Source of the DNA: Raillietiella orientalis
Lineage: Eukaryota
Reading direction: 5' to 3'
DNA: 64,000 bases
Assembly: GCA_036172245.1 (NCBI GenBank)
Contig: JAYWIR010000025.1
Span: forward strand, 992,001-1,056,000
Shown: in pieces, positions 13,801 to 64,000 of the stretch
Layout of the letters: every line of letters starts with the position of its first letter
How positions within the stretch are numbered: the first letter of the stretch is position 1
The notes under the pieces: generated by a model
Database searches by the model: none
Told to the model about the DNA's origin: nothing
Seen by the model: the letters and a program-made list of their open reading frames with translations, nothing else
Program-made: the position numbers and the translations under genes

Positions 13801-14655
13801 GATCGTTTTAAGGTTCCTCACAGTTCGAGGCCTCACAAGAACTCTCTTTGTTCCAATGTACATGGGACGTACATGGGACGTCCCCATGACGCCTGTTGCA
13901 AAGGTTAGGTTAGGTGAGGTGAGGTTAGGTTAGATTGAGTTAGGGTAGGGTAGGGTAGGAACGCAGGTCTCCTTGAAGGTACAGGCCTTTTTCCTGCAGA
14001 GGGCTTTCTTGCTGCTCATCGACATTCCTTTCTCTCATGGAATGGAATGGCAACTCTTTGAGGCGTTGCTAGAAAAGCTCGCAACGTGGATCTTGACAGG
14101 GAACACTTTCTCAAAGCGTCCGGCTCACCCAAACGGGCCGGAGAAGGCATCTGGATTCCTTCCCCCCTTCTCAACAAGCACCATGAAATCAAAACAAAAA
14201 ATCGGATGCGCCCACCCGCCTCTCTTTCGAATGGTTCCGAACGGTCCTCCAGAACGTCCTTGTTCCGAGGAGATCTGACAGCGTTCCCTCAGGAAGTCCC
14301 CAAATGATGCCGAAATCGACGCCGTTCGCTTTCGAGCACGAAATTTCCTCTCCGCTCCATTGGTAGGCATCCTCTCGCGCAGCGCTGACGTGCATTTCTG
14401 TGTACTCACCGACATCCATGCAGCTGCTGTAGAATGACTTCAAGATCTTGACGAAATGAGGGTCGTTGTCAGCAACAGGCTCTTCAACCAGAGCATTCAG
14501 CTGGACATCCACTTCGTCCATCAGCAAGCTGAACTGGCTCACGACTGCCTTGTTTTCCGGTATCTTCGTTTCCTTCACGAACTTTCCGCAAGCGAAGGAG
14601 TAGAAGTCCTTGCAAGGAGAGACGTCCACGTCTATGTTGTTGATGATCCTGGCGG
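1880..14655 (-). CDS. Neprilysin / M13 family zinc metallopeptidase, multi-exon; the 5' TM-coding exon was not located
   Basis: Phase-consistent GT-AG exons on the minus strand: 14655-14410, 11288-11080, 11015-10839, 10781-10564, 10509-10351, 10297-10154, 6032-5936, 5894-5726, 5678-5560, 5494-5363, 2221-1880. Motifs: [39 protein letters not shown] (HExxH), [16 protein letters not shown]-terminal CEVW*. Confidence 0.95.
9600..10000 (-). mobile_element. Decayed LINE C-terminal zinc-finger (zf-RVT-like) remnant in a neprilysin intron
   Basis: '[22 protein letters not shown]' resembles the C..ET..HLF..CP....IW motif of LINE ORF2. Confidence 0.35.
12900..13320 (+). mobile_element. Decayed reverse transcriptase remnant in a neprilysin intron
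   Basis: '[11 protein letters not shown] ... [15 protein letters not shown]' resembles the RT G-x-P-L-S and (Y/F)xDD motifs. Confidence 0.3.
13902..13959 (+). repeat. Degenerate (TTAGG)n-like pentamer array
   Basis: aggttaggttaggtgaggtgaggttaggttagattgagttagggtagggtagggtagg, about 11 units; preceded by a tandem gtacatgggac x2. Confidence 0.8.
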
Positions 14656-16579
14656 CTGGAAACGAAACATTCAAGAAGCTGCTGCTTCTTGGAAGCTGCA
14701 ACCACCCTTGCGTTGGCACGGAAGAGGTGGCTGTAGTTTGTTGTCACCCTCGGGGAGGGCAGCCAGCAGTCGGTAACCGAGACAGTGGAGCCAGAAAGCG
14801 CCGTCCCGAGCGCCGTCGCTTACCGATCCAAGCTCCCCCCCCCTTCCGTCCTCCTCAGCGCCTGCGCTTTCGAGCGAGTCCAGCGTCGTCTGAAGCGACA
14901 GAGTCCTCTGGAGACTTTCCCTTTGGAGGATTCGAAGGAAGCGGAGAGAATTCCTTCCCGGATGCGCGTACTTGCCTAAAGTCACACAGAGAGAGGGACG
15001 TGCAACCTCTGGCTTCCGGAAAGCGAGAGTCGGGGCGAAGACCCTGCCCACGAGATGGGCAGGAAATGGTAAGGACAGAGGGGGTGGAACTGGAGGGAGA
15101 GGAGACGTCAGTAAAGCGACGGGACGCATCAAACTGGTTCCCCGATAACGCCAGGGGCAGCCGTGAGGAAGCTTTGGTCCAGCGAGGACGAATGCTCAAG
15201 GAGGACGCTGCCTCCTTGACGACGCCCGAAATGTCTTTCCACTCCATCACTCTCAGCAGAGCGGAGGCTGGAAGAATTCAAAATCCACCGACTGCAGCGC
15301 CTTGCTGCAGATCGTTTCCTGAACACCCCCCGTTCCGAGGGGTTTCCCCTGAGGAGTGCCTTAGACGCTCGTCGTCCTCTGGAGAGGAAACTCCGGGAGG
15401 AAAACGGGTGGAGATGAGGGAAGAAGCGGGGGGGCGGGGAGGGACTTTGCCTCCCCCCCCCCCGTCACGCAGCGCGTTCGGTTCCGGTATCCGGAAGAAG
15501 AACGGCGCGAGCGGGAGCTACCGGCTCCCCTCCCTTACCCCTCACTTCCCTTTCCGGAAGAAAAATGCAACCCTACCTGCCAGCGTACATTCCTTCGTAA
15601 AGCAGACCCGGGGTCTCTCTGGTGGCGTAGACTGCTGCGGAAGAAGGTCAACGGAAAGGGCCATCGTCGACCTCCCTGCGTGCGCGGCGGCGCGGGAGAG
15701 CGTCCAGCATCCCTGAAGACACAGAAACCAAAACGCGACCGCACACATGTCCGTTCGCATCGAGAGTGGTGTGGTGACAGGCGGCCGGTCTGGGGAGGGT
15801 CCCGCGCTATAACTCTGTGGTCCGCAGTCCAAGAGGAAGCCTCGAGGGCACGATGGTTTCCTGACCTCTGAACCCGTCTTAGGCATCCGCCTGCAGGCGC
15901 GCGCGAGCAGTCCCACGGCAGGCCTCATGTCTCCGCGCCCAGTGTTTTGGCACCTTGGTTACCCCTCCTCCTCCTCCCTCGCAAGGTCAGAGGACGCAGG
16001 GAAAAGTCACCACCGAGAGGATAGACGGCGGCGCGCCGACCATACGCGTGTGGGAAAAATGGAACATGGAGGAGATCTCGAGGATGATCCATCCGTCTGA
16101 GGGAATGTGATTGGCGCGCGCACGTGCCGTATGCCTCCTTCCCCGCACCTCTTTCGTTCGTTTTCCCTTCCAGTTGCGCCCTTTCCAGGGACTCTGTTGC
16201 CCACTCCGGAGGGGAAGGTGGAGAAAGACTTCAGCAGACGCCAACCCCACGCGCATGCGTGAAGGAGCACTCTTGTGCCCGATGGTGTATCCGGGGTAGC
16301 GCCGGCCCATTGCCGAGAGGCTAACCGTTCTTTCTCCGATCCCCTCCCTGGCGTGATTTCGCGAAACGCCCTATCCGGGCGTACGGCTGCAGCGCGCAAA
16401 CGCACCCCAAGGAAGCCACGAGTGCCTCTTCCCCCCGTTTCCTCCTAGAGGCGTATCTGAAGACTCACACGTGGCGGCTCCGAGGGAGAGCACACCTGGG
16501 GCCCTTTGAGAGAGAGAGAGAGAGAAATAACAGCAACAGCCGCCTGTCACCTCCAGAAAGCGGATTACGAGCAACCCCG

Positions 16580-17165
16580 GGGGGGGGGGGGGGGGCAGGA
16601 ACGAGGAGGGGTGACGACCTCACCCTTTGCAGCCGATGGCGGTGAGGAAGAGACTCCTCCACACGTGCCGCCCGACTGCTCGAAACTGCAGAGGGAACGG
16701 GAGCATCTGGTACATCTCTCTCTCCCGAATGGTGACCCCAAGGCTATTCTGCTTCCGGTTCTTCCAGCGCCACAGCGACAGGAAGCCCTCTTCTTTTGCC
16801 CTCAGTGCGGGTGGTGGTGCTGTCAAGAACTCCTCTGGGACTCCGGCAGCGCGACGGCCGGCACGAAGTATTGAGCCCCGCTCCAGCGGATAGCAGCGCG
16901 CAGGGCGGACCTGAGCTGCAGAGGTGGAACGGACGTCGTGGGAATGCACTGTCGCATAGGGAAGGACTCAGGAGAAGTGACCAACCCTACCTTCACACCC
17001 CGTCCCAGCTCAATCCAAACAAACAAAGTTCATTTTTTCATCATGCTCCGCGTGCCGAAGAAATGATGTCCCCACACCTTCCGACCGGCGACCACCTCTT
17101 TCACATTTTTACATTGAGGTTTGTTCATTTTACGTAAAAATAAACGTCCCGGAGTCAGCCGGTTT
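16580..17165 (+). mobile_element. 3' fragment of a GC-rich LINE-like family
   Basis: Degenerate zinc finger 'RNCRGNGSIWYISLS', a T-rich tail, and terminal AATAAACGTCCCGG (17139-17152), identical to the reverse complement of 35006-35019. Confidence 0.45.
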
Positions 17166-17599
17166 AAAGCGGTGAGTGGCTTGCCCTTGGGCATGCTGAC
17201 CTCTGGAAGGCTCAGGGAAGTTGTTCGATGGGATGTCCACGGGCATCGCATTCCAGGTTGGTTCGACTGTGGCGCGGACCGGCCAGTAGAGGCGCTTCGA
17301 TCCGCAGCGACGAGAAGCTCCGGTCCCGTGCATCCTCCTCCGCAAGCAAAGAAGGCTGAGGACTCTTCTCCGGGAGGAGTGGCACCCGGAAGGAGAATCA
17401 AGTTGGACTTCCGCCTTCTGCCGAAAACCTGGCGCGCTCTTCGGGCCGGAACGCGCGCGGCACCCAAGGCGCATCCGGCGTCGCATCTGGCGCCGACTCA
17501 CGTGCGATTGTCGGTCCTCCTTGAGCACTTTGCAGGCAGTGCGAATGGCTAACCCACTGGGGGCGCTACAGTTGACAGGCGGTGGAGCACGTCGGCTCG

Positions 17600-18300
17600 A
17601 TTCTCACCCGGGTGTGCCGGGGCCTTTACTCTCTCGAATAAAAACTTTTACAGAATCTGTGGCTGGGCCGGTGGTCCAGCCATGAGCTAGATGATCAAAG
17701 CCTTCTAGGTCACCGGTGCGATACACCTCGGCAACAGAGGGTAGGGAGCATAAACAAAACGAAAAAACAAAAATGAAACATAAATAAAAGAAGTGGGAAG
17801 GTGCGGGAAGGGATCACAGCCTGATGGGAGGGTCCGTCACGGCTCGAGAACTCTGGGGAAAGGAAACGCTCGTGCCTTTCCCCTGCGTCTTCTGGCCTTG
17901 ACGCGGGAGGAAGGGGCGGGCACGCGTGACCAGTCAAGGCGCTCCTGCTGGCGATCGGCTCGGTCCCGCAGGAACTGAAAGAAAGCAGGTGCCTGTCTTG
18001 TGACTCGCAGGGTCCCGTGCATCCTTTCACCAGCGTCACTGCACCTACCGGCGGACACGCGTCTCGCCACTTCCTTGTGCAGTCCACCCAGAAGTGAAGC
18101 TCCCAGCCGCACTTTCATGCAAAGAAGTGCGGGAGCAGCCTCCCAGTGGAAATTCTTGGATTCAGCGAGTTCAGAGGCGGAGATGGCGGAGAGAGCAAAG
18201 GGAGATCGTTGGCGCTGCCCCGTTGGCTTCAAGAGCTGCGGGAAGTCCACCATCACGAGGGGCAGAGAGGACTGGGTTGCCTAAGAGCCAGTACACCCTT
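17600..18300 (-). mobile_element. 3' fragment of the same LINE-like family
   Basis: Terminus tcacccgggtg..ggggc shared with 28906-28925; minus-strand pyrimidine-rich tail at 17740-17800; 'GGLHKEVARRVSA' resembles 'GALQEMWRRLASA' of the 29 kb copy. Confidence 0.4.
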
Positions 18301-19000
18301 CGGAGTGTTCCAGGCGAATGCTGCGACCCCGAGTGCCCTTCCACGAGGACTACAGCGCTGGGGCGAGCTGCTCGGTCTTCTCAGCGGAGACCGGGAGTGA
18401 GCCCCAGTGCTCAAGAACAACTGCGTCCGCCCCCTGAAGTGGCGGGAGTAGGCATTTCTGTTTTCGCTCTGGAGTCTTTTCTGCAGCGCACGCCGGCACC
18501 ACTGAACGTTGGGTAGAGCATACCCAGATAGTCGCAGTTGTGAGGAACGGAAATGCCCCCTTCCGCAACTGCTTGAGGGCTGCGTTGCCCACGGCCCCTA
18601 TGAGAACGTTCCGAACGACCCTGCGGATCCTGCTTGGCAACCCAGGGACTTTTTACTGCCCCTCTTTGTTCGGGATGTCGTGCAGCCCCTGTGGCCCCAC
18701 TTTGCTGCATCTGCGGGATTGTGGTGGCGCGTGGCGAAGTCGACAGAGGGAGAAACGAGAGGGACGTCGTTCAGTTCGTAGTTCGCTTTTTGCAGATAGA
18801 GGATGGGATCTATTCGAACCGTAAGGATTCCAACTCACATGGGACCTATTGGAACGTACCTGCCTGGCATCCTGGAAAGGATGAAGATCTCCCCAGCGAA
18901 CAATAATCCCCTCCCGATTCTCTCAAGGATTTTTATTTATTTTTATTTACTCTTTGTTTTTATTTTCGTTTTCTCCTATCTCCCTCCGCTGTCGTGGAAA
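18300..19000 (+). mobile_element. 3' fragment of the same LINE-like family
   Basis: 'RSCEERKCPLPQLLEGC' resembles 'RCGAAETLPHLLFDC'; T-rich tail at 18925-18990. Confidence 0.45.
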
Positions 19001-19399
19001 GCCCTGCCAGTCTGCGTACTGCTGACCCGGCAGGTCCATGGGCAAACTGAATGTAGTAGAACCACGTGACCTACCACAATTTGTGAGTTGAAATTAAAAT
19101 TTTAATGAACGGGTGGAATCAGAGTGCTCCAAGCTCTGAAAAGCTGTAGATCTCCAAACCATGCTGAGGTGGCCCGTTCCCAAGCTCGTATGCTGGGGGA
19201 CGAATCGGGCTGCTGTTGCGCTCGTGCTTTGGCTCCAGTGGCGGTTCAGCAAGACGATAACGGTGCGTAGAGCTCTTGGTACTTTTTCACGGAGGAAATG
19301 ATAATCTTCTCACTGTGTGCAAAGTTTCGTGCTCTCCTTCAAGTGGCGACACGAGGTGGCTCTCTTCATGCACCTGGGCCATGGTTCCGCTACGGGAGC

Positions 19400-20950
19400 C
19401 ACCACCTCATGAGGAGCAAGCACTCTTTCCGAACCGTGCCAAGTGCAAGGCGGTAGAATCATAGGGAACAGTGTCCTCATCCCCAAGGCTGCCTTCGAAC
19501 TCTTCTAAGAAATGCAGACGAAAACTGGAAAACAGATGGTGAAGACCCAACGAAAACCTCTGTGGGGAGAACTCGAGTCGAGAATGAAACTTGGACATCT
19601 CTGTCGTCCAACGGGAAAAGGTGGTACGGTGAAAAAATCCATGGAACGTTCGACCCATCTTCCGAACGTTTGGAAACTTCAATAACGAATAGCCCTATGT
19701 CGCCCACAAGAGCTACTTGAAGCTGAGCAACAGCCCGGAGACTTTATGACTTCTTTGATGAAGGAAATGGAACAGTAAATAAACAAAAATCTCCCACGTG
19801 ACCAAGGAAACAAGAGCTGGTAACCATTAACGAATCAAAATGACCTCTAAATCAAGGACTTCGGAAACGACTAGCTATGATGATCCTTTATTTTCTTCCC
19901 TTGCCAAGGGCTGCAGGAAGATGGATTTAACGGAGATGAAGACAATGTGAAGAGTTTGCAATAAGTGGCAAATGCTACAAGATGCTGCTGCTCCATTAGG
20001 AAGAAAGTACAAGACTTCCAAGTTGTGATAACTCTTATGATCGTAGAAGTGCCTGGTCCCTGGTAGAGAAATAAAATTGAAGGATCGTATATCAAGAAGA
20101 GAAACTGGGGAAGTCCAAACTACGGCCTCCACCAATGCTGAATATTCCATAGAAACCAAAAAAACACTGGAGCAAGGTTTGGCAGCCGAAACTGCTACCA
20201 GAGATCCAAGATCTCCTAATATTTCATCATAGAGGTTCGTCATGTGTTCAGAGACTTCAACCACACACATCCACCAAATTATTCGAGGGGAGAACCTCAA
20301 AACAAGTTTAACGAAGCCTACGGGAACTTCATTGTTCACGTGCCAAACATGGAACAGGAAACGTGCAAAATAGAAAAGTGATAAAGCACGTGGCAGAATT
20401 TCAGGACCTTTTGTTTTTGTTTTTAGCCTTTGTTTTTTCCACGGTAGCAGCATCACATTGGCCAGACTGGTCGTTTGTCATCTCCAGGAGCTGCTAGATC
20501 GACGGCTCGTTTCCGGCGCTTTCTCGCACCTTGAGAAGACTTGAACATAGACACGAGTTTTTAGACTGGGCTTGCAGCCTATCAGGACATTCTTGCGCCG
20601 CCGCTGCCCTCATCCATAGTCGTTGCCTCCACTCCACCCTACGCTTTTTTCACTTGCCCGTTTTCCTCGAACAGTAATTATCAGTGTGCCTCTTTGAAGG
20701 GGAAGAGATTTCTCCCCTATACAACTCTATCTTAAGTATCGGCAGCGCCTTCTATGCCATAAGCATGGGGATCAGAATGACAAACTCGGGTGAGGAACAG
20801 TAGTAGCCTTGAAAATCCTCACAAGACTGACGATGAAAGAAATAGTTACTGAGAAAGGGTCCCAGTCTGGACATTTCGGTACGCCTTGCAAAGGGTGCAA
20901 GAGAATGTCCAAGTGCAAAGGCACTATACCACTCAGATCAAATGCTTGAG
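19400..20950 (+). mobile_element. Highly decayed LINE RT
   Basis: Ordered remnants: 'RNWG..TASTNAEYSIETK' (cf. NWRPITLLNxDYKILTK), 'FVMCSETSTTHI', 'GLFEGEEISPL', 'HKTDD'. Confidence 0.4.
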
Positions 20951-38600: not shown

Positions 38601-40374
38601 CAGGCGTGCCGTCGGGAAAGAACTTGAGTCTCTGCCTCCTCAAAGCCTCTGCCGGACGAAATCCCTCGGTTTCCCCCTGCTGCAGGTAGTCTCCCTGATG
38701 GAAGCGCGCGAGTGGATCTTTTGCTGCCCCACAAACTTTAATGCATGACGGTGGGAGACGGCCGACACTTGAAGAAACTCACAGGGACACATCCGGAAGA
38801 GTTCTCTTCATGCCTTCGGGGGAATCTCTCGAGGAGATGATGGATGACCTAAAGGAGTGATGGATCTGCACTTCTGCCACGCCCTTAACCAAAGCGCCGT
38901 CTTTCCTAAGGGAATGGAACGACAGTAGTTCACCGGCAGGGTGAGAGTTCACTTTTTGTTAACAAAACACTAGTGTTTGCCAAAAAGCTCCAGGTAGGGT
39001 ATATGGGATGCCCCGAGAGCTCATTCACAGTTTATACAATCTTGATATTGCAGCTGATCCGGGAGTATAGGGCGCAGAACAAAAGACCCCTCTCAGACAT
39101 CAGGAACCCTACACAGAGATGAATTTTCGATTCTCATCTCACATGTAGCCATGAACTGGAGCCGGTAAGCGCCGTTTTTCTCCTTGCAGGACCCAGTGGA
39201 AGTTCGAAGGTTTGACAACCTGGCCTTGGAGTTCCGATCTTTCCTTGTCTTTCGTAAATGGACCAAGACTTCTTGACGACAGCAAAGAAAGCTCATCTTC
39301 TATTCAGCAAAAGAAGATCCAATTAATCTGGACTCGATCTTGATCTCAACTGACCATTTGCCACGAACTTTCTTTCAAGAGGAATGCTTACGCTTTTCTT
39401 TGATGCTACGACGGTCAGATTCTCACTGCATAAAACTGAAAATCCCTCTGGGGTGCATCTCATTTCCGTACCGAGAAAAATGCCATCCCACGTAGTATCT
39501 TGTGGTGCATCAAACCTTACACAGCAACCGCATTTGCGTGACAGATCAAGAATTACAGAGATTCGGGTCCACAATCGATCGGTGGACGATGTGACTGATG
39601 ACAGACATTGAAACTGGGATCACATTTCCGATGATGGATTAAAATATGATCTATCACGCTCACGACCCGATGAATGGGTCCCAAAGTCCGACGGCGTGAT
39701 TCAGGAAGCGCAAACAGAACGTCCCTCGTGAACAGGAAACGAAGCATCATCAAACGCAGAAGTCCACACTTGATCTCTCATAGCGCTTATCGTGCATCGG
39801 ATGAAAGTTTGCTACAACTGAATAGGTGCTGACCCCTTGCACGACTCGCCGAAGTAATGCTCAGTCGATAGTTCTCTCGATGGCATCATCGTGAGTGCTC
39901 TTCGAAAAGGGAACCGAGTTTCCGCCCTTGGCAAGACTCCACTTCTGCAAATGAACTGCACTGAAATTCATATGTCGCGCTTCCTGCTTCCCCCCCAAAA
40001 GGCAGGGATGCACATCACATTCTCTTCCTCGTTTGCTTCCAGCAACAAGCAGCATTCCTGTGGACACACACATTTCCGGTCGTCACTCCCAGCATACAGA
40101 AGCAAGCTGCACATTCGCTTCGATCAGAAACTCACACGTGCAGCCGGCCATGATGGATTGCAACCACTTTTCCAGTGCCTGGAAATCAGCTAACCCGTGC
40201 CCGAAGGCTGTTTGCATCGAACTTTTCTCCACATCAACCTCCAGGATCCTGCTAGAGTACTTGCTGCCATCTCAGCAATGTCTTGCCGATGGAGGCAGCT
40301 CCAGGGAAACTCAACTGTCCCAATCCCCTCATCACTCGCCGGAACCTAAGTTCCTCTGACGCAGGAACGTGGGC

Positions 40375-41200
40375 AGGCTGTCGTCTCGACGCTTGAGCAC
40401 CACTCATCTTCAGAATCGGTTTCTTAGGCAGGTGAGAGGTTGACAACGCTCCTTAGATGATCCCGACTTCCATGGCTGCCATCTTCCTGCTGCCCATAGC
40501 AACCAGCACTTCCCGTGGGTTCTCATGAGGGTCGTCAGACGCCGCAACCCATCTTTTGGGTTCATGCCAGCGCTAGTTCTGCTAACCAAAAGTGACCGCT
40601 GCACACTCATGGATCCCACAGCTTAGCTTCGGCTATCGAGCTTTCCTGACCATTCATTTACAGGATGAGACTCACTTTGCGTTTCCAGGAGTGTCCTCTA
40701 TAAGGAAGGGTCTGTGAGGGACCAGGCTACTAGGTTTGTCTTTCGCCCCTGTATCCGGTTTCCAAGACCAATTTGCACTTCGAGATTTCTGCGGACATGC
40801 ATCAGAGATTCCTCTGGCTTCGTGCTGGCCAGCCGTAACACTTAAGCACCAAATTGTCAAATAAAGCTGTGCGAGTGGAGGGAATGCCTCATCTTCCGAG
40901 ATGGCGGTCGCACGAAACGCGAGTTCCATCTAGGGTGACTTGTCCGAGCTTGCGCCAACTCTGGACGTTTCCTTGGTTTCTCTGATTCATCACGCGTCTC
41001 ACTTGGCAAACAGCACTCGCCAGGCCAGCAGGCAGGCAGAACGTGTGCCACTGCAGGCTGCTGTTGAGCAGTCGATCCCTTTCGCACAGCTTTTCGAGCT
41101 TCACGCCAAGCAGATCCTTTACTTGGAATGCATCTGACTGTCCCGCAGGCTGGCTGTCGTCTCGACGCTTGAGCGCCGCTTGTCTTCAGGGTCGGTTGCT
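40375..41200. repeat. About 45-bp imperfect direct repeat (about 40375-40420 and 41150-41200)
   Basis: ggctgtcgtctcgacgcttgagc(a/g)cc(a/g)ct..tcttcag occurs twice. Confidence 0.8.
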
Positions 41201-47874: not shown

Positions 47875-48499
47875 AACTGATAGTTCAAGTGAAAGATGAA
47901 AGTGGGGGGACAGTAAGTTCATATATTCTTATATATATATATATATATAAAGAGCAAATAGATACTTTAGTGGCGTATTGGAACTTCAAGAGCTCGAGAT
48001 TGTAACTCTGAAGAGAATGACTTCATCTGGAACGTGTGTAAGCCACAGTTCTCGTGGTCCCCCGCGAACGTGATCACGCTCCGTTCTTTTCCATTAGCAA
48101 GAGGACAGGCATGCTTAGGATGAGAGTGCGTCTTAAGCGAGTGGCTCAAAGGCCGGGGGCATTCCATTTGTCCGTGGGCAGCCGGCCTGCTGGTGTGCGT
48201 CGACCACGAACCCACCGGTTATTCAAAGCGACTGCACGCAGTAATCGAGGCGCGAGAGAAGCAGCTCGCACGGAAACGGTGAAGGTTGGGCGCCATGGAT
48301 ACCCGCTCCGGCCGGCGACCAGGAATACCGTGGTGCTTCCCGTAGACTCGAAGCGAATCCGAACGCCGGTTCCCCGCTTCCCATTTCCGGTTTTTTTTTG
48401 CGACTGTGAACACCGCCGGAAGCGTTCGGCCGAGCAGCATGCTGCACACCATCTGAATCGCCCCCCGTGCCTGCAGGTATGACCCGGATTGCATGCAGA

Positions 48500-50000
48500 G
48501 GGTTGGGTCCTGCCGTCTCTGGGTGGAATCGTGGGAAGCGGGGGGGAGGGGAGGAAGGGATGCCTCGAGGTCGTCCGGCTGTCCTCGGCTGTCCGGCCGG
48601 CTGGTCCCAAGAGGGGCACACGCGCTTTCTTGCCGGCTTTCTCGTTCCGAGAAAGCAGAGAACGAAGTGCTCGGCAGAGCGCGTGCACTCTTGGTGTCTC
48701 TGCACCGGGACCTTGGCGGTTTCCAAGAACTGCTGGGAGGCTGCACCTACTCTTGGGGGTGGGTGGGAAGGCGCCTCAGGAGCCGGCACGCAGCCACAGC
48801 GGAAGCAGCCGCCTCTCTCCGCTCCTTGACCACATCACCTCCTCTTTCCCCGGAGTGTCCAGAAGGAGCACTTTCTGTGTCACAGCACGGGAGGGGGTGG
48901 AGGATCGAAGAATCCGTTGTCCCGTGTCACGCCAGCCTCGCGGGAGGAGGGAAAGAGGTGCGAAAGAGGAGGGGGGGGGGGAACGCCGCTCGGCTCCGTT
49001 CGAGTCGCTGCGTTTGCTGCCGCCGGATGGAGGCGTGAGCGACCAGCGTGGCGCACGCGCTCTCCTTCCCCCACGGGAAGGGAGGGAGCAGGGAGAGACG
49101 GCCGAAGGTAAAAGTGCGCTCCTTGGACCGGAAGCCATCAATCGAGGAGTTATCAGTTCCAGCACGGGATTGGACTTGAGGCATCTGAAATGCCATTTTC
49201 GTCACCGCTCCGCTTGGTGGCGCGAAGGCGGAGTCTTCACTCCATCCCTCCCTTGTCACGGGGCAGGTGGGTCCTCGGAGTCCGTTCCCGTCGTGATCGC
49301 CCCGGGATGCCTTCTCGAAGCTGAGGATCACTCTCGCCGGAACCCTTTTTCTTTCCTCCTTTTCCTTCTTTTTTGAGGAGTTGCACGGGGGTCGCCGGCC
49401 CCGGAGGATTTTTTTTCTCCCTCTCCTCCCCCGCTCGCGCCGCAGTCAGTGGCACGCTGCGAGGCCGAGCCGGAGCCGCGGACAATCTGTATGCGTGAGG
49501 CGGCGATCCAGGGACTAGACCTTCCCGGAGCGCCGTAACCAGCGAGCAGGGTCGTCCCGAGTTCGCTGAAGAGAGTGCTCTGGGTGCTAGCTCTCCCGGC
49601 AGGAGGAGGATCCCAGGGAGCCCCTCCTCCCCCGACTGGGATCCCGGGATTATCGAGAGGCGGCAGGCAGCGGTCGGCGTCCGGAACGCCTGCCGAGTCG
49701 CAGGGCGAAACCTCAAGGTCAAAGAATCGCTGGATTCTTCGATGTGTCCTGTAGTCATTCGACCGGGGTGGGGAGGAACATTTCGAGGCCTCGTTCATCG
49801 GGGGACCCAGGAACCGAGCGGAGGGAACGGACGACGGGGACCACGTCCTCTTCCCCTGGGCCGACGTTGACCTCGCGAGATATCTCCGAAAGTCAGGGAG
49901 CGCGGGACTTGCGCACTGCGATCCCTTCCCTCCCCTGTTCAGATGACCACGCGCCGTTGCCTCTGATTCGGTTTGGGTCTCGAGGCAGGTGAACCTTTCG
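48500..50000. mobile_element. Two tail-to-tail remnants of the GC-rich LINE-like family (+ about 48500-49380; - about 49400-50000)
   Basis: 'GPEAINRGVISSSTGLDLRH' (+) and 'GILLLPGELAPRALSSANS' (-) align with 'CFFTPGGLSLGAVIATTCCILRH'. Confidence 0.35.
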
Positions 50001-53000
50001 ACTCCCTTCGACAGCCGAATTTCTCCCCTATCCCGCCGCAGACCTCCCCCACCCTTCCAACGAAAGCTCCTTCTTCGACTTTCCCTCCGCCTCCCCACGA
50101 CTCGATTCCCATCGCAAAGGGTGCGCCGCAGCGGGTCCTCAGTCCTCTCTGAAAGCCGGAAACCTGGAAGCCGCAAGGCTCCCGCCGAGGCGGGAACGCA
50201 GGGAGCTACAGGCGCGCTCTCGCAGGAATGCGACCGCACGGCCCGTCAGGAAGCGCGAACGGGGGCGCCTCTCTTCCTGAGGTACCTGGCAGGTGCACTT
50301 CGGGCTAAAGCCCCGCCGGAAACTGCTCCGGCGAGCGGATGGAGAGAGAGGGCAGGGGAACCTGGAGTCCAGGAAGCGCCCCGAATCCCGGAAGAAGGAT
50401 TCCCGGTTCGGCAAGCCTCTCCTAGCTTCGCCGAAGGAGGGAAAAAAAAAAGCCTCGTGGAGGAAGGGAGGAGGGGGGACGAAATTTTTTCGAGGGTGGC
50501 GGCGGCGGCGGCGGCCCGGGGTAGCTGTGGATTCCCCGACTTCAGTTGGACTCCACAACCGGGAACGATCGGACGGAATGCTCAGAGAGACCGCGAGCCC
50601 TCGGGGAATTTGACCAGAATTCTACAGCACTCCCCGCCTTCACGCGTGGTTCGCTACGCGGCGGCGGAGAGTCTAGGAGAGGGAGGCGTCCGGCCCTGAG
50701 GAACCTCCCATGCGCCCGGACTTTGCGGGACATTCTTTGAGGGGGGAGCCTCCGGCGGATGGCAGGGACCGCTTCCTCGAGAGCAGCTGGGAGGCAGAAG
50801 CAGCAGCGTCGGAAAGCCACCCGTCTACATGGAAAGGCTTCGTCGTCGTCTTCCGGGAGGTTCTGGACACGAAACTCTCGAAGTCTCAAAGGAGGTCTCC
50901 GTCTCCGCCATCGGGTGCTGCCTTCCTGACCCCCCACCCTCACCCCGAACCTTCCCCCACGAGTGCGAGGGGTAGGGATCCCGTGGGGAAAGATCTCTCC
51001 GCGCGCGCTCACAAGAACCTTGCTAAAGGAGTCTTCGAGGACTCCCTAGGAGGGTCCTCAAAGTCCTCCCGTGACGAGGAACCAGGGGTCTCAGTTACCT
51101 CCCAGTCCGCGGGAGAAGGTGTACAGGCCGGCAGTTTCAGGTCGCTGAAAGCAAAGGAGAAGCACTTCCGGTGCAAGAAGGATGAGTGGTAGGACCTTTG
51201 TGGAACATCCTCGAAATGTCGGCACTGCGGGTCCTGGAAAGGCCTCTTTGTGAAGTGATTTTCGCGGCTTGGGATGCGTTTTGTGGGAGCCGGGACGAGA
51301 GGAACTCAGAGGTCGCAGCTGCAACGGTTTTAACGGGACCACGCGTGGCAGGAGGAGTCCCACGTCGACACGCCACTTCGATCACGTAGCCGTCCTCTCT
51401 GGCTTCTTCGGGAGAGTTTCCCAGCGCCGCGCCTGTTTCCCCCAGGCATGAAGGTTTGAGGCACCGGAAGGGCTGATTAACGCAGAGGCTGCTTATGGAC
51501 GCGCGTGCAGAGCGAGAGTGAATGCGTGTTCGACGGGAGTACGGTGACCTCTGGTACGAAGGCTACTTGGAGCGATCCCGCACTGGAGGAACAGGAAGAC
51601 ATCCAGCAGGGAGTTTGAGAACCGGCAGGCACAGGGATGCCAAGTTCGATTTCGAAGAGCGAGCGGTTTCGGGAGCGAATTTCTTCAGAGTTCACACGCT
51701 TCGATGGTGCGTTACATCTGTGTCGGTTCCGTGAGTGCGAATGACTTAACCCTAAAGGACTCAGAGCTTCTCCTTCTAACAGACTGAATCACCGCTGAGG
51801 AAGAGCTACAGTTCTAGACAACACTACCAGCACCCATCCACCCTCACGCAAGCACTTTTCTTTTTTTAGCCCAGCCGTGCACATGTTCGCACAGCCTTCG
51901 ATGAAGGCAGATGAATGACTCTGATTAAACCACGACCTGATACTCAAAGTTGTCTTCCTCTTCCTCACTCGCCTCTGCAACTCTCGTTTTCTTGGAGATC
52001 TCAGACTGCAGCTGCGTCGATCCAGTGCAAACCAGCAAGTGCAAATCGAAACCCATGTTCTTGTCCTTCGTCGATTGGAAATTTCCATTTTTTTTCCCCT
52101 CCTCCGTTCCAGTCACAAGCCAGAGTAGTGGAATTTGCATTCTCGGTCCTTGAAAAAGAGACTTCATTCAGACACTTGAGTGAGTCCCTCGTGATTTCTT
52201 GCATGTAGCCGCGAGATGCACGAAAGCACGGATGAGAACCACCCACCCGTGCTTTCGTTGCAGCTTGTGCAGCCGTGCGTGAGGTTAACCGTTTCGATGA
52301 ACTAGCAGGAGGTGACGTGTGGTGCTTTCGAATGCGTTGGGAGGAATGCGGCCACTGGACTACCCTGCTCAAATGGTGCGCGGGAAGTCCGTGTTCATCA
52401 ACACCATCCGCGCCTGCCATGATGACGAAGTGTCTTGCAATCATCTATGGGTTCGCTTCAAACGAGTTCGGATGGTCCTCACTCCTCCATGAATCCTTCT
52501 TATGCTGAGATTGGTCACGGAGTCTCCCGGTTGGAAGTTCCAGAGATAGTGTATGCAAGCACACAATCTCAACACAGGACAACGTGTTTGTGAGAAAGTG
52601 AGGTTCGGCTCTGTTCAGTGAAGAGAAGGACTCGAATCTTCCTTGGGTTGCCTTTTCGTGTGATCCTATATTGAATTTTCGAGTCTTAGGTGTTTCATTA
52701 TGTAAAAAAAAGGTCTGTTCTCCGAGGAGACCCATTCCTTAATCTAGGTAGGAGTCGGAAAGTCCATTCCCAATTTCCGGCTAATCAAGACGGAGCGGAC
52801 GCGAGAAGCTCTCTGAGGGTGCACATCCGAAACCTCGACCTTCCCACAGTCATCTTGAGGAAAGACTCGAAAGGCGCGGTGCATCCCAATGGGCCTCGAT
52901 CAGCATTCGAAGCTGAGCACAAGAACGAAAGGTGCCACTTCCGGATGCCATGGCAGCACGGCCTCCAACGCAGGCAAATGAGCTCGAACAACTTAATGTA

Positions 53001-59579: not shown

Positions 59580-61462
59580 ATGAATTCTCAAAACATGATT
59601 GAACTGAGTGATGTGATCCTTAAAACTTTAAGTCAGAAAGACACTGTTAGTTCCCTGGAACTAGCAAACGAATTAAATGTGGATCATCAGAAAATTGTGG
59701 GTGCTATTAAGAGTCTGCAAACTCATCAAAACGTAAGTGAGAATTTCTGCATTTTGTATAACTCATTAAATACAATTTCCTTTTTTTAGCTTTTGGATTG
59801 TGAACAGGTTTGCTCTTTGGAGTGGCATTTGACGGAAGAAGGAAAGGAAATACTACAGAATGGGAGTCATGAAGCACGGTTGTTTGCTAAAATTCCTTCA
59901 GAGGGAATTTCTCAAGCCAATTTGATGGTGAATATATAATTATGAAGCCCACTTGAAATTTGGCACTTCTAAATTTGTAAATTTTTAGAACGAATTTTGT
60001 AATTACAGTGAGTTTTAATTTTTTTTCTCTGTTACAGCAATGTGTTGGAGACAATGCTAAATTAGGTTTCAATAAAGCCATGTCATATGGGTGGATTCAA
60101 ATTAACAAGCATGCTGATGGAGATGTGTGGGTGAATAAGAAAGCAGAAAGCATTCAGGATACCACTCAGAATTTGCTGTCAGCAGTAGATAAGAGGTTAC
60201 CACTAAAAGATAAAGAAAGAAATGAGCTGAAAAGACGCAAGTTAGTTGAAGAAATGTAAGGTGAAGTCATAATTTGAAATTGCTTTTAAATTAATTGATC
60301 GTTAAGACAAGTGAAATACTTCGTTGTATCTAAAGGACCTAGTTTCTCAACAGAAGTGCAAAAACTGGAAACTGAACTAACATCTGATATGATTGCATCT
60401 GGTTCTTGGCAGAAATTGCAGTTTAAAGATTACAATTTTTCTGCAATGGGTGCCTCAGTTTCTCGGGGTTATCTGCATCCCTTACTTAAAATGCGAGATG
60501 AAATAAGAGAAATTTTTATTGAAATGGGGTATGATGCTCAGTGATACATTTTTCATGTTGTCTGGTAGATTTAGTGAAATGGCAACTAATCGCTATGTGG
60601 AAAGTTCCTTTTGGAATTTTGATTCTTTATTTCAACCTCAGCAACACCCAGCTAGGGACTCTCAGGATACATTTTTTGTTTCTGGTAATAATTAATATTT
60701 CAGTATGAAAATTAATGATGTATCAGATCCTGCAGAAGCTCATCTCCCTTTTCCTGATTATGTTGATCGTGTAGCCAGTATGCATAGTAAAGGAGGTCAT
60801 GGATCAGATGGTTATCAAATGCAATGGCAAAAATCAGAGGCATGTCGCAATGTATTGCGTACCCATACCACTGGTGTGAGTGCACGTTGTCTACATGCAC
60901 TGGCCCAACAAGTCAGTAAAGTGGCTAGGGCTTTCTAATGTGCTGTTTAGAATTCTTTCCATCCAGTCAAATGTTTTAGCATTGATAGGGTGTTCCGCAA
61001 TGAAAATTTAGATGCTACACATCTAGCAGAATTCCATCAAGTGGAGGGTATTGTAGCTGATTACAATCTGAGCTTGGCAGATTTATTGGGATTATTGACA
61101 ACATTTTTTGAAAAGTTGGGATTGAAACAGTTACGCTTTAAGCCTACCTACAATCCATACACAGAACCAAGTGCTGAAGTTTATGCATTTCATGAGGGTT
61201 TAGGAAGATGGGTTGAGGTTGGTAATTCAGGAATGTTTCGCCCAGAGATGTTGCATCCTATGGGTTTTTCTGATGATGTGTCAGTGATTGCTTGGGGACT
61301 GTCTTTGGAGAGGTACCTTTTCATTTTTTACAAGTCACATGTAATTTTTTAATCAGGCCAACAATGATCAAGTATGGGATTCAAAACATTCGTGAACTTG
61401 TAGGCCATAAAGTGAACTTGGCAATGGTCATGGACAGTCCCATATGTAGAAGAGATAAGTAA
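59580..61462 (+). CDS. FARSA: Phenylalanyl-tRNA synthetase alpha subunit (cytoplasmic), 499 aa
   Basis: Exons 59580-59732, 59790-59927, 60038-60255, 60307-60528, 60569-60684, 60727-60911, 60951-61312, 61357-61462 total 1500 nt. Motifs: [99 protein letters not shown]. Confidence 0.97.
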
Positions 61463-61497
61463 GTGGAAAAAGAAGTTTTTGTTTGTTATTGCTGCAG
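61459..61497 (+). other. Candidate 39-nt intron containing the FARSA stop codon
   Basis: GTAAGT donor, T-rich tract and TGCAG acceptor; same length as FARSA intron 60912-60950; frame-preserving. Confidence 0.7.
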
Positions 61498-61498
61498 G

Positions 61499-62200
61499 AT
61501 GTTCCATGGTCCTTCCTTGCATGCACAAGCTGAAGAACCTGTGCAAGTAAATTCAATGCTTTCACAAATAGCTGTGATCAGCAATGAGATGGCAAAATGT
61601 CTAATACCAGACACAACACTTGTGGATCTAACAATTGTTGCTTCTCCTCAATGCCCTCCATATTCCTTACCACCTCTGTTAAAAATGCTGCATTCATTGT
61701 ATTCAGTACATTGCACTACATTTGTGCACAGTTCACTGAAGAACTCACCCAAACATCTGAACAATTTTTTGCCAAGCCTTGAAAAATATTGCACAGATAA
61801 AGTTCTCAATGTTAATGTTATTTGGAAGGAAGTCTCTGATATTGAAATCATCACAAGTGCAGAACAACCCACTCTTTATGGAGAAGCTACCATGATACGA
61901 CTTTTAGGAAGAATGGCTCAACAACATGATACTCTAGGCATCAGCATGTCTGTGCAAGTGGATAATTGGATTGATGTTATCTGCAGAGATTTCATATATG
62001 CCTCTGAAGAGGAACGTATGAAACTACTTAACCACATCAGCAACTTGTTTCACAAGGAAAAATACTTGTGCTGTGGCAGGTGGTCTTTGGCTGATCTTTT
62101 TTTGTGGTCTAGTCTCCAGCAAACACAATTAACTCAGAAATTGTCACCTGTGCTGGAGATTTGGAAAAGGAATTGCGAACTGTACATAGAAAAGTTATAG
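61499..62200 (+). CDS. AIMP2: Aminoacyl-tRNA synthetase complex-interacting multifunctional protein 2 (p38/JTV-1), 233 aa, intronless
   Basis: DLTIVASPQCPPYSL..TTFVHSSLK..VNVIWKEV..LYGEATMIRLLGR (thioredoxin-like domain), then VDNWID..YLCCGRWSLADLFLWS (GST-C domain), matching AIMP2 architecture. Confidence 0.88.
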   Translation: MFHGPSLHAQAEEPVQVNSMLSQIAVISNEMAKCLIPDTTLVDLTIVASPQCPPYSLPPLLKMLHSLYSVHCTTFVHSSLKNSPKHLNNFLPSLEKYCTDKVLNVNVIWKEVSDIEIITSAEQPTLYGEATMIRLLGRMAQQHDTLGISMSVQVDNWIDVICRDFIYASEEERMKLLNHISNLFHKEKYLCCGRWSLADLFLWSSLQQTQLTQKLSPVLEIWKRNCELYIEKL

Positions 62201-63555
62201 TTTTACTTTGAAATATAATTTATTGGTGTGGGTAATCCTGCTTCCTGTTGCAAACCAAATTCTATTAAATTGCTAATTTTTGGCCTTAATAGTACTTGTT
62301 TGCAATTTTGGAGGCTGTGAGTGTATGATTACTTCTTAGCTTGTGAATTCAGTTATGAAGTCTGAGTGTAATAGAGTTAATTTATACAAATCAAAGTATG
62401 TTTATAGAGTTACTGGATTAGCAGCATAATTTTGCAGTTGAAATGTGAAGCATGATTTCAATTTTATAAATGCTTCAGCTTAGAAAATGAAAGTGACATA
62501 TCTTTGCCAAAGCATGTTAAGTTATTTGTTGATTGATCTAAATGGTGATTGTAATAAAGCATATGCAAAAGTGTTTTTTAATATTGTGAAGTTTTGGGGT
62601 GGTATACAAAGCTTGGACATCTTCAGTTAATTGGATGTGCATTCATTATCATCAAAGTTCCAGTGCCAAAATCATCATGAAATTAAAACTTTAGTCAAAG
62701 CTATCATAAATGTTTTTGTGATTGCTTACATAATTTATGAATTTTTTCTTTTATTTATTGAAGTTAATGTTATGTCTCCATTTGCTGTCAACACATTTTT
62801 TAAAGGTTTCGAGTACTCGGTAAATGAGTACTTTGTAAATTTGAAATTTTTCAATTTGGATAGTGATGCATGTTACATATCAAGATTTTTATCTATAATC
62901 TGACGTGTTGTCTGGTTGATTTATTGTGCAGTGTGTGATATGTGATTGCCTTATGACCAGCAAACTAATAAAACAAGTTGACTGATTTCAATGTAGGCTT
63001 ATTTTTTTGAGATTTTTGAAACATTCCTTATTGACTGCACTTGTCTTTAGACTCTGTATTTTTAGTGATTTTGTTATAATGAAATAACTCTTTGCTATGT
63101 TTTTAGGACAGAAAATACGTTGAATATCATCAGAAAGTTGAAAAAGATAAAAAAAATCTTAAATTCAACTTTATGACAGAAGAAATCATAAAGCAACATT
63201 TTTATAATATATAACAATGGGAATCGAAGAATAATTTCGTAGAATGATTTCCTTTCATAGAAGTTAGGAGTTCCTTTAAAGCATGTCTGAACTTTTTGTG
63301 TATACATTTTTTTTTTGTCTATTCCTTAGTGCATTAGATTCATGAATTCTTTTTATCATATCCGTGCATTTTTAATAACTAGTAATAAACAACCAAACAT
63401 TCGATAAAAATCCGTTTCTGTGGAAACTATTTTAGAAATTCCTAGGCTCCCCTTTTCACAAAATTATCCATGTCCGCAGAAACCCTGGTTTCACACTTGA
63501 TTCAGCATCCTGGGAAGAATAATCAATGTAGTCCTGATGACTGCCGAGCAGGGGA

Positions 63556-63966
63556 ATGGTTCACATCGACCCGACGTGGAGAAGGAAGCAGGCACTGGTC
63601 AGAAAGCACCAACTCAAAATTGTGCCTAGGAGCAAGAAACTGGCAGATTTCTCATCTATCCTGGTGATCCCCGTCCCTGGGGACACAAGGAGCTGGATCT
63701 ACCAGAGGCCCAGAGTTATCTTCAAGAGAACCGTGCAATGGAGACAGGGAGCCTACTACCACCACTCCCGCATCCTTAGGTACATGGAGATAGTGAGGGG
63801 AAAGTTCATTCACCGGACGCGCGAAGTGTGGAAAAACCACAACTACGCGTGGTCCAGGAAGAACAAGGAAAACCTTCACCTCATACCTGAAGAGGATAAG
63901 GTCATCCATGCCCTCCAGGAAGCTGCCAATCGCTACGGAAGTGACAGTCAACATGTTCGCGATTGA
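63556..63966 (+). CDS. Hypothetical basic protein, 136 aa, single exon
   Basis: ATG-to-TGA ORF with GC3-rich, protein-like composition, sharply distinct from the AT-rich flank. No recognised domain. Confidence 0.45.
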   Translation: MVHIDPTWRRKQALVRKHQLKIVPRSKKLADFSSILVIPVPGDTRSWIYQRPRVIFKRTVQWRQGAYYHHSRILRYMEIVRGKFIHRTREVWKNHNYAWSRKNKENLHLIPEEDKVIHALQEAANRYGSDSQHVRD

Positions 63967-64000
63967 AACGACGCTCAGGAGGAGTGACCTGCCGTCAAAC

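Follow-up and report, generated by a model that had tools for sequence, protein, structure and literature searches.

Does the stop codon of a FARSA gene lie inside a removable intron, so that one locus could yield either the free alpha subunit of cytosolic phenylalanyl-tRNA synthetase (PheRS) or that subunit joined to AIMP2, an auxiliary protein of the animal multi-synthetase complex (MSC)? The question is raised by 64,000 nucleotides (nt) of Raillietiella orientalis DNA (contig JAYWIR010000025.1, positions 992,001 to 1,056,000 of the forward strand; the whole of this stretch is called the window below), in which FARSA and an AIMP2 open reading frame (ORF) follow one another on the plus strand. 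An earlier note, made from the letters alone, had proposed that the 39 nt between them can be spliced out. We conclude that FARSA and AIMP2 probably form one conjoined transcription unit with a spliced fusion product. The anatomy of the sequence is demonstrated here, as are the identity of each part, its fold, and a conserved junction and phase in arthropod-like genomes and annotated proteins. The features concerned are the following.

59580..61462, plus strand: coding region of FARSA, the cytosolic PheRS alpha subunit; GT-AG exon model, one open frame, 499 amino acids (aa)
59580-59732, 59790-59927, 60038-60255, 60307-60528, 60569-60684, 60727-60911, 60951-61312 and 61357-61462, plus strand: the eight FARSA exons
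61357..61458, plus strand: last FARSA exon up to the candidate donor, closing on AA, the first two bases of the Lys499 codon
61459..61497, plus strand: candidate terminal intron, 39 nt, with donor GTAAGT, a T-rich tract and acceptor TGCAG; it holds the FARSA stop
61460..61462, plus strand: FARSA stop TAA, bases 2-4 of the candidate intron
61498..62200, plus strand: AIMP2 exon without internal introns; the G at 61498 would complete the Lys499 codon, and an ATG at 61499-61501 opens 233 codons followed by a stop at 62198-62200

FARSA closes with AGA GAT AAG TAA, Lys499 occupying 61457-61459 and the stop 61460-61462. The donor GTAAGT (61459-61464) overlaps both of these codons, and the acceptor TGCAG ends at 61497, one base ahead of the AIMP2 ATG. 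The earlier note had described just this succession of a stop overlapping a donor, a 39-nt spacer and TGCAG followed by G-ATG, and we found every one of its coordinates to be correct. It had also claimed that excision rebuilds the lysine codon and opens one long frame. In a simulated splice, joining 61458 to 61498 did restore AAG and gave a 732-aa ORF (499 FARSA plus 233 AIMP2 residues) closed by one stop. Its mass was calculated as 83.4 kDa, compared with 56.7 kDa for FARSA and 26.7 kDa for AIMP2 as separate proteins.

By the exon model FARSA contains seven introns, all GT-AG, of 57, 110, 51, 40, 42, 39 and 44 nt. The sixth, at 60912-60950, has the same length as the candidate intron, confirming that a 39-nt intron already exists in this gene, as the note had it. 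The candidate donor equals the best among the seven FARSA introns (the other donors are GTGAAT, GTAAGG, GTATGA, GTAATA, GTCAGT and GTACCT), and the candidate acceptor has pyrimidines at 12 of the 17 positions from -20 to -4, compared with 6-14 in the real introns of the gene. AT content is 67% in the candidate intron, 56-81% in the FARSA introns and 61% in the exons. The pattern GTAAGT-N25-50-YYNCAGG occurs a single time in the 64-kb window, at this junction. Shuffles are expected to hold 0.46 matches to it, and 38 of 100 had at least one, so the motif pair by itself is not significant. Two things taken together go beyond chance: the motifs fall precisely on the stop and start codons, and the same junction is conserved elsewhere.

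Even unspliced, the FARSA and AIMP2 ORFs share a frame, because the spacer of 39 nt is a multiple of three and contains no further stop. Were the TAA read through in place of splicing, a protein of 745 aa, 13 of them extra, would result, as 61463-61498 is free of stops and in the AIMP2 frame. We find this barely credible. By our estimate chance alone would leave a stretch of 12 codons open about half the time, a TAA with G after it makes a poor readthrough context, and the introns of 310 and 934 nt that relatives carry at the junction (see below) cannot be read through.

The gene upstream of the junction encodes a PheRS alpha subunit of the eukaryotic type in full, its frame closed by one stop at the end. 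In Pfam searches the class II PheRS core (PF01409, tRNA-synt_2d) was found in exon 7 at 159.5 bits (cut-off 19.8) and in exon 5 at 45.4 bits. PheRS_DBD1 scored 62.6 bits (cut-off 26.2) and PheRS_DBD3 31.8 bits (cut-off 26.6), with PheRS_DBD2 at 18.6 bits, under its cut-off of 25.9. The 233-aa ORF downstream is AIMP2, not of full length. Its residues 40-227 match human AIMP2 (5a34_B) with an E-value (E) of 9e-16 in a phmmer search of PDB sequences, and Thioredoxin_16 (PF18569, the N-subdomain of AIMP2) covers residues 40-123 at 62.1 bits against a cut-off of 26.5. The glutathione S-transferase (GST) family GST_C_3 on its own reached 18.1 bits, under the cut-off of 21.6. An AlphaFold model of the ORF, built with 60 aligned sequences, has a predicted local distance difference test score (pLDDT) of 91.1 and a predicted template modelling score of 0.82. 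The 11 top-ranked PDB chains in a Foldseek search with it were all human AIMP2 (E down to 1.1e-15, template modelling scores 0.62-0.77), and these chains come from complexes with EPRS and AspRS.

How much of AIMP2 does this exon provide? In an alignment with canonical AIMP2 (P0001) it opens after the LysRS-binding part, and just 39 residues stand ahead of the AIMP2 domain. In the model, residues 1-13 are disordered and residues 14-33 form a helix with a pLDDT of about 75-86, from which the L-E-x-R-W/Q motif of the relatives' helix is missing. The LysRS-binding domain PF16780 gave no Pfam match in the window AIMP2 at E <= 0.01. Nothing convincing as a LysRS-binding exon was found between FARSA and AIMP2 in the window or in the loci L006/L007, L054 and L032 of relatives, and there was no M-Y-x-V-type motif near the window AIMP2 in an exon-like setting. 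In a review, LysRS is described as binding the extreme N-terminus of p38/AIMP2, and the p38 zipper as binding p43 (PMC4394549). Judged from its sequence, the AIMP2 part appears to begin at the zipper-like helix, without the LysRS-binding peptide, and not to be a complete MSC scaffold. The earlier note had taken it for the whole scaffold, a view that does not survive the absence of the LysRS-binding N-terminus. Identity to other AIMP2 proteins is low, at most 22-35% to the best 150 of 202 HMMER matches and 21-28% to 59 aligned relatives. Word-index protein searches with the window AIMP2 returned no match at E <= 0.001, because it is too divergent for 5-residue words.

Proteins with the same junction are present in databases. 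An exhaustive HMMER search with the window AIMP2 ORF retrieved 202 proteins at E <= 0.001, and a Pfam scan covered the 14 proteins of 404 aa or more among the best 150 of them. One (P0051) combines the PheRS core with AIMP2, six combine AIMP2 with tRNA_edit, and seven have AIMP2 with other or no additions. When residues 290-546 of P0051 were used as the query, six of 1783 candidates matched, five of which carry both PF01409 and PF18569. These are three Timema-type proteins of 546, 654 and 660 aa (one named by its source as Timema californicum, the other two 92-98% identical to that one), a 740-aa 'phenylalanine--tRNA ligase alpha subunit' of Bacillus rossius redtenbacheri, and the 700-aa protein P0153. 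The sixth match is a partial Timema podura protein that spans the same junction. In the ESM Atlas there is a cluster whose 85 members are represented by a 714-aa protein; PF01409 is found in 100%, PheRS_DBD3 in 99% and Thioredoxin_16 (PF18569) in 96% of them, and Arthropoda is the commonest phylum.

In the fused proteins the junction reads ...P-I-C-R-L-D-K followed by H or N, and in the window ...P-I-C-R-R-D-K followed by M; the window FARSA C-terminus, ...PICRRDK, matches the ...PICRLDK of the fused arthropod proteins in the alignment. The simulated window product aligned with the 740-aa protein in a single high-scoring segment pair (8-725 against 4-729, 46% identity) and crossed the P0051 junction without a register gap. 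The in-frame spliced FARSA-AIMP2 product proposed in the earlier note thus has an end-to-end counterpart, with the same junction, in fused arthropod proteins. PF16780 is in none of the fused proteins. In the alignment with canonical P0001 their junction falls right after the LysRS-binding part and right before the helix, so that PheRS-alpha occupies the place of AIMP2's first, LysRS-binding part. Another kind of fusion is found in P0041, P0088, P0104, P0113, P0143 and P0106, in which the N-terminal part of AIMP2 (Thioredoxin_16) is combined with a C-terminal editing domain of the YbaK/ProX type (PF04073); some of these six also have the LysRS-binding domain.

Is the junction also conserved at the level of DNA? 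Metagenome contigs scanned with P0153 gave 69 loci, 38 of them with the last FARSA exon. AIMP2 lies downstream on the same strand in eight of the 38, namely L001, L032, L054 and five loci of one type (L015, L016, L026, L045 and L046). In L054, FARSA ends GAC AAG TAA, with the donor GTAACT after AA, a 934-nt intron and the acceptor TTTTCAG before A, and a simulated splice gave a complete in-frame fusion. L032 ends AAG TAC TAA, with the donor GTACTAAG after AA, a 310-nt intron and the acceptor TTTTAG before A, again in frame. Neither locus has an ATG at the start of the AIMP2 exon. Of P0153, the loci L006 and L007 contain the AIMP2 exon alone, from the junction residue K450 to the end. This exon is preceded by TTTTCCAG, its acceptor CAG is followed by an A that supplies the third lysine base, and it too does not begin with an ATG. 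The 700-aa ORF of P0153 runs uninterrupted on a contig of 3972 nt, and the other exons of P0153 are on the separate, intron-bearing contigs L052, L055, L056 and L060. Since P0153 is free of introns where the genomic pieces carry them, it looks like a spliced cDNA. The splitting of the lysine codon after its second base is common to the window, L054 and L032, and the acceptor of L006/L007 agrees with it. In the window and in these three designs of relatives (L006/L007, L054 and L032), unspliced RNA would stop 0-1 codons past the lysine.

The five loci of the L016 type (for example L016:5081-5836) have an open frame that runs from ...A-D-N-P-L into the GST-C half of AIMP2, without the C-R-L-D-K end, the helix and the thioredoxin-like half. 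They represent an in-frame deletion fusion at the DNA level, with no stop or intron between the two parts. L032:6168-6241 comprises, in addition, a possible AIMP2 mini first exon of 35 nt with its ATG at 6168, and then a GT-AG intron of 39 nt. Spliced to the acceptor that the FARSA donor would also use, this mini-exon would make an independent AIMP2 possible alongside the fusion.

Four loci with a Lys-stop end (L003, L004, L011 and L042) have no AIMP2 seen downstream, L003 and L004 with less than 150 nt of downstream sequence, too short to judge. The lysine is AAA in all four, so that there is no GT donor. Nor was there an AIMP2 signal in the downstream sequence of L044, L029 or L010. FARSA of L044 ends ...CRLDKHQVD-stop and is followed by a frame with a P-S-V-P-Y-S-L-L-like string. 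The contig L010 is mRNA-like, and its FARSA is distant (49% identity to P0153). A second ORF (L010:1593-2478) begins in the same frame 3 nt past the stop; by eye it resembles elongation factor 1-beta/delta, and it has a weak Pfam match to Arc1p_N_like on its first part. The contig may represent a polycistronic transcript or have been assembled as a chimera. A FARSA tree was built from 11 rows with long continuous FARSA, L008, L010, L011, L017, L024, L034 and L048 being too short and therefore dropped. Seven of its eight inner branches are open, and the branch leading to the window is long (1.22) and gives it no placement. This 11-row tree neither supports nor refutes a single origin of the FARSA-AIMP2 arrangement.

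Several observations weigh against a conserved, spliced fusion. The arrangement is far from universal, AIMP2 being downstream in just eight of the 38 loci that have the last FARSA exon. Given the low AIMP2 identity and the unplaced FARSA, common descent is argued from architecture (junction and phase) only. The adenines near the usual branch-point distance in the candidate intron all have, by eye, a poor consensus. The window AIMP2, unlike that of L006/L007, L054 and L032, keeps an ATG one base past the acceptor, with A at -3, and could for this reason be made independently. L001 lacks introns where L054 and L016 have them (about 73-87% nucleotide identity) and is thus mRNA-like; it keeps the FARSA stop and has the AIMP2 ATG 19 nt downstream in another frame, which indicates that some relative makes an unfused two-cistron RNA. 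Lastly, the Timema and B. rossius fusions are annotated models, and gene prediction can run neighbours together; several Timema models have obvious retained-intron or missing-exon stretches.

These flawed Timema models, and a motif pair that alone is not significant in the window, could be taken to mean that the two genes are merely close and that the fused entries are predictor merges. We regard such a combination of coincidence and annotation artefact as very improbable. The same junction is shared by independent sources, the 700-aa ORF of P0153 lacks the introns that the genome carries, and in three lineages the AIMP2 exon does not begin with a start codon. Moreover, the fused ORF of the L016-type loci stays open at the DNA level, and phase compatibility is maintained across introns of 39, 310 and 934 nt.

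Where, then, would a FARSA transcript of the window end? Two hexamers resembling poly(A) signals follow the genes.

62264..62269, plus strand: ATTAAA, the first such hexamer 3' of the FARSA stop, 64 nt past the AIMP2 stop
62553..62558, plus strand: AATAAA, the second such hexamer

A regular-expression scan for these two hexamers found no AATAAA or ATTAAA between 61301 and 62263. Upstream of the AIMP2 end there is thus no canonical signal that could serve FARSA alone, and transcription of FARSA most likely continues through AIMP2. The 36-nt spacer would also be too short for a separate AIMP2 promoter. A shared transcript does not by itself require a fusion: the TAA might always be kept and AIMP2 translated separately, by means of a trans-spliced leader on TGCAG, reinitiation or internal entry. 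The position of the ATG, 1 nt past the acceptor and with A at -3, is what trans-splice acceptors typically show, the mRNA-like L001 is a FARSA-stop-19 nt-AIMP2 RNA in a relative, and the apparent mini-exon with an ATG in L032 would point to independent AIMP2 expression within the gene family. We nevertheless consider a two-cistron pair without fusion unlikely. The missing AATAAA/ATTAAA upstream of AIMP2 extends to the sequence ahead of the would-be trans-splice acceptor, and a full consensus GTAAGT stands at the very codon where the fused relatives join. The AIMP2 exons of three relatives have no start ATG and need either the fusion or another first exon, and reinitiation past an ORF of 499 codons is inefficient in eukaryotes.

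In the conjoined unit that we favour, a single promoter upstream of FARSA and a single 3' end downstream of AIMP2 would define the transcript, and a phase-2 intron of 39 nt would split the Lys499 codon with a donor that contains the stop. Removal of this intron would give PheRS-alpha followed by a short linker, the helix and the GST-like domain, a protein of 732 aa and 83 kDa. If the intron were retained, the TAA would end a normal 499-aa PheRS-alpha, and AIMP2 would be left as a second cistron 36 nt downstream with its own ATG. We infer from the sequence that the 39-nt intron is spliced in this organism, and that the two RNAs stand in some ratio to each other. PheRS is an (alpha-beta)2 enzyme, so the fusion would carry two AIMP2 domains, and it would tether (alpha-beta)2 PheRS to the partners of the AIMP2 GST-like domain. 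In the human structures that topped the fold search these partners are the GST domain of EPRS and AspRS. Docking on the EPRS GST domain and AspRS, and with it an entry of PheRS into the MSC, could follow.

Could the choice between the two RNAs be controlled? In a regulated splice switch, tissue- or stress-controlled retention of the intron would move PheRS in and out of the MSC. The fused, intron-free P0153 and the unfused, mRNA-like L001 are both seen, in different relatives, and with a stop inside the donor retention would yield normal PheRS-alpha. However, constitutive or leaky splicing explains the same sequence, and the L016-type loci are constitutive fusions at the DNA level, which leaves regulation of this kind rather doubtful. 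The broadest form of our proposal is offered as a tentative possibility: PheRS could be a covalent member of the MSC in much of the arthropods and here, the splice choice at the stop-containing donor giving either free PheRS with a short AIMP2 or a doubly tethered PheRS. If true, this would be a conserved and undescribed remodelling of the MSC with a built-in switch, in which PheRS-alpha replaces the LysRS-binding first exon of AIMP2.

Other features of the window lie apart from this locus. The sole Rfam match is an isolated fragment of eukaryotic large-subunit ribosomal RNA (RF02543, 74.7 bits, model positions 967-1379 of 3401) at 40346-40707 on the minus strand, in a non-rDNA setting. Of the 77 ORFs of 125 aa or more that were scanned in the window apart from FARSA-AIMP2, only two matched Pfam, both to Peptidase_M13_N (neprilysin-type), at 10939-11472 and 14192-14743 on the minus strand (32 and 67 bits), which are probably exons of one minus-strand gene. 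Blocks at 12001-20000 (55-56% GC) and 48001-52000 (61%) are GC-rich compared with the 36-37% around FARSA and contain long overlapping ORFs in several frames with no Pfam match; they may be repeats or mobile elements. At 63470-64000 there is an abrupt switch to GC-richer sequence with ORFs that reach the window end, one of 136 aa on the plus strand without a Pfam match and one of 115 aa, open-ended, on the minus strand.

How does the locus compare with what is described? Two papers list ArgRS, AspRS, GlnRS, GluProRS, IleRS, LeuRS, LysRS and MetRS with three auxiliary proteins in the animal MSC (PMC4394549, PMC4636271). The complex is described there as having nine fixed synthetase activities and AIMP1-3, without PheRS. 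The words 'PheRS' and 'phenylalanyl' appear nowhere in the first of the two, a review (PMC4394549). In Drosophila, alpha-PheRS (CG2263) and AIMP2 (CG12304) are given as separate genes (PMC4826098). A full-text literature search, which did not cover subscription-only papers, found no paper describing a FARSA-AIMP2 fusion. As far as we searched, then, the fusion is visible in databases under a plain PheRS name and undescribed in the literature. The earlier note's remark that no such fusion was described stands for the papers searched and fails for the databases, where fused proteins are filed as PheRS alpha subunits. As a consequence of this filing, AIMP2 may be scored as missing in such genomes. 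Should the conserved in-frame product be real, the composition of the MSC would differ in a major animal clade, and the separate genes of Drosophila would stand for one loss or for the outgroup state. The locus would then also be a natural experiment on the tethering of a synthetase to a scaffold, and on an AIMP2 that works without its LysRS-binding peptide. A stop placed inside a donor would be a compact route to either the normal enzyme or the fusion from one gene.

Nearest to the window stand the long PheRS alpha proteins of arthropods (Bacillus rossius, Timema and the Atlas cluster). They likewise have DBD domains, the class II core and the thioredoxin-like/GST parts of AIMP2, a junction after C-R-x-D-K, about 55-57 residues from the junction to P-P-[YF]-S, and no LysRS-binding domain. 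Unlike them, the window has an ATG right past the junction, no L-E-x-R-W and a 39-nt intron in place of 310, 934 or more nt; its fused product is hypothetical whereas theirs is annotated, and the identity of its AIMP2 part to any relative is low (about 26-32%). The closest described analogue is C. elegans MetRS with a p43/AIMP1-like C-terminal domain, in which a synthetase carries an MSC auxiliary in cis, as proposed here (PMC4394549). It differs in synthetase, auxiliary and lineage, and is a fixed fusion with no stop-holding intron. Animal GluProRS (EPRS) is also a fusion of aminoacyl-tRNA synthetase genes within the MSC, and its Drosophila locus is reported to give two polypeptides (PMC4826098). 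It joins two synthetases via WHEP repeats, in contrast to the window, and involves no scaffold protein and no stop in a donor. For human AIMP2-DX2, the review cited above describes how alternative splicing alters the N-terminal region of AIMP2 and, through it, the protein's association with the MSC, as the fusion would here (PMC4394549). AIMP2-DX2 drops exon 2 (the zipper), whereas here the LysRS-binding part equivalent to exon 1 would be replaced by the whole of PheRS-alpha. In conjoined or dicistronic animal genes, finally, neighbours on the same strand are co-transcribed, and a donor in the last exon of the upstream gene is spliced to an acceptor at an internal exon of its downstream neighbour. 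Chimeras of this sort are for the most part rare and show little conservation, whereas the FARSA-AIMP2 arrangement is conserved in frame across very divergent lineages.

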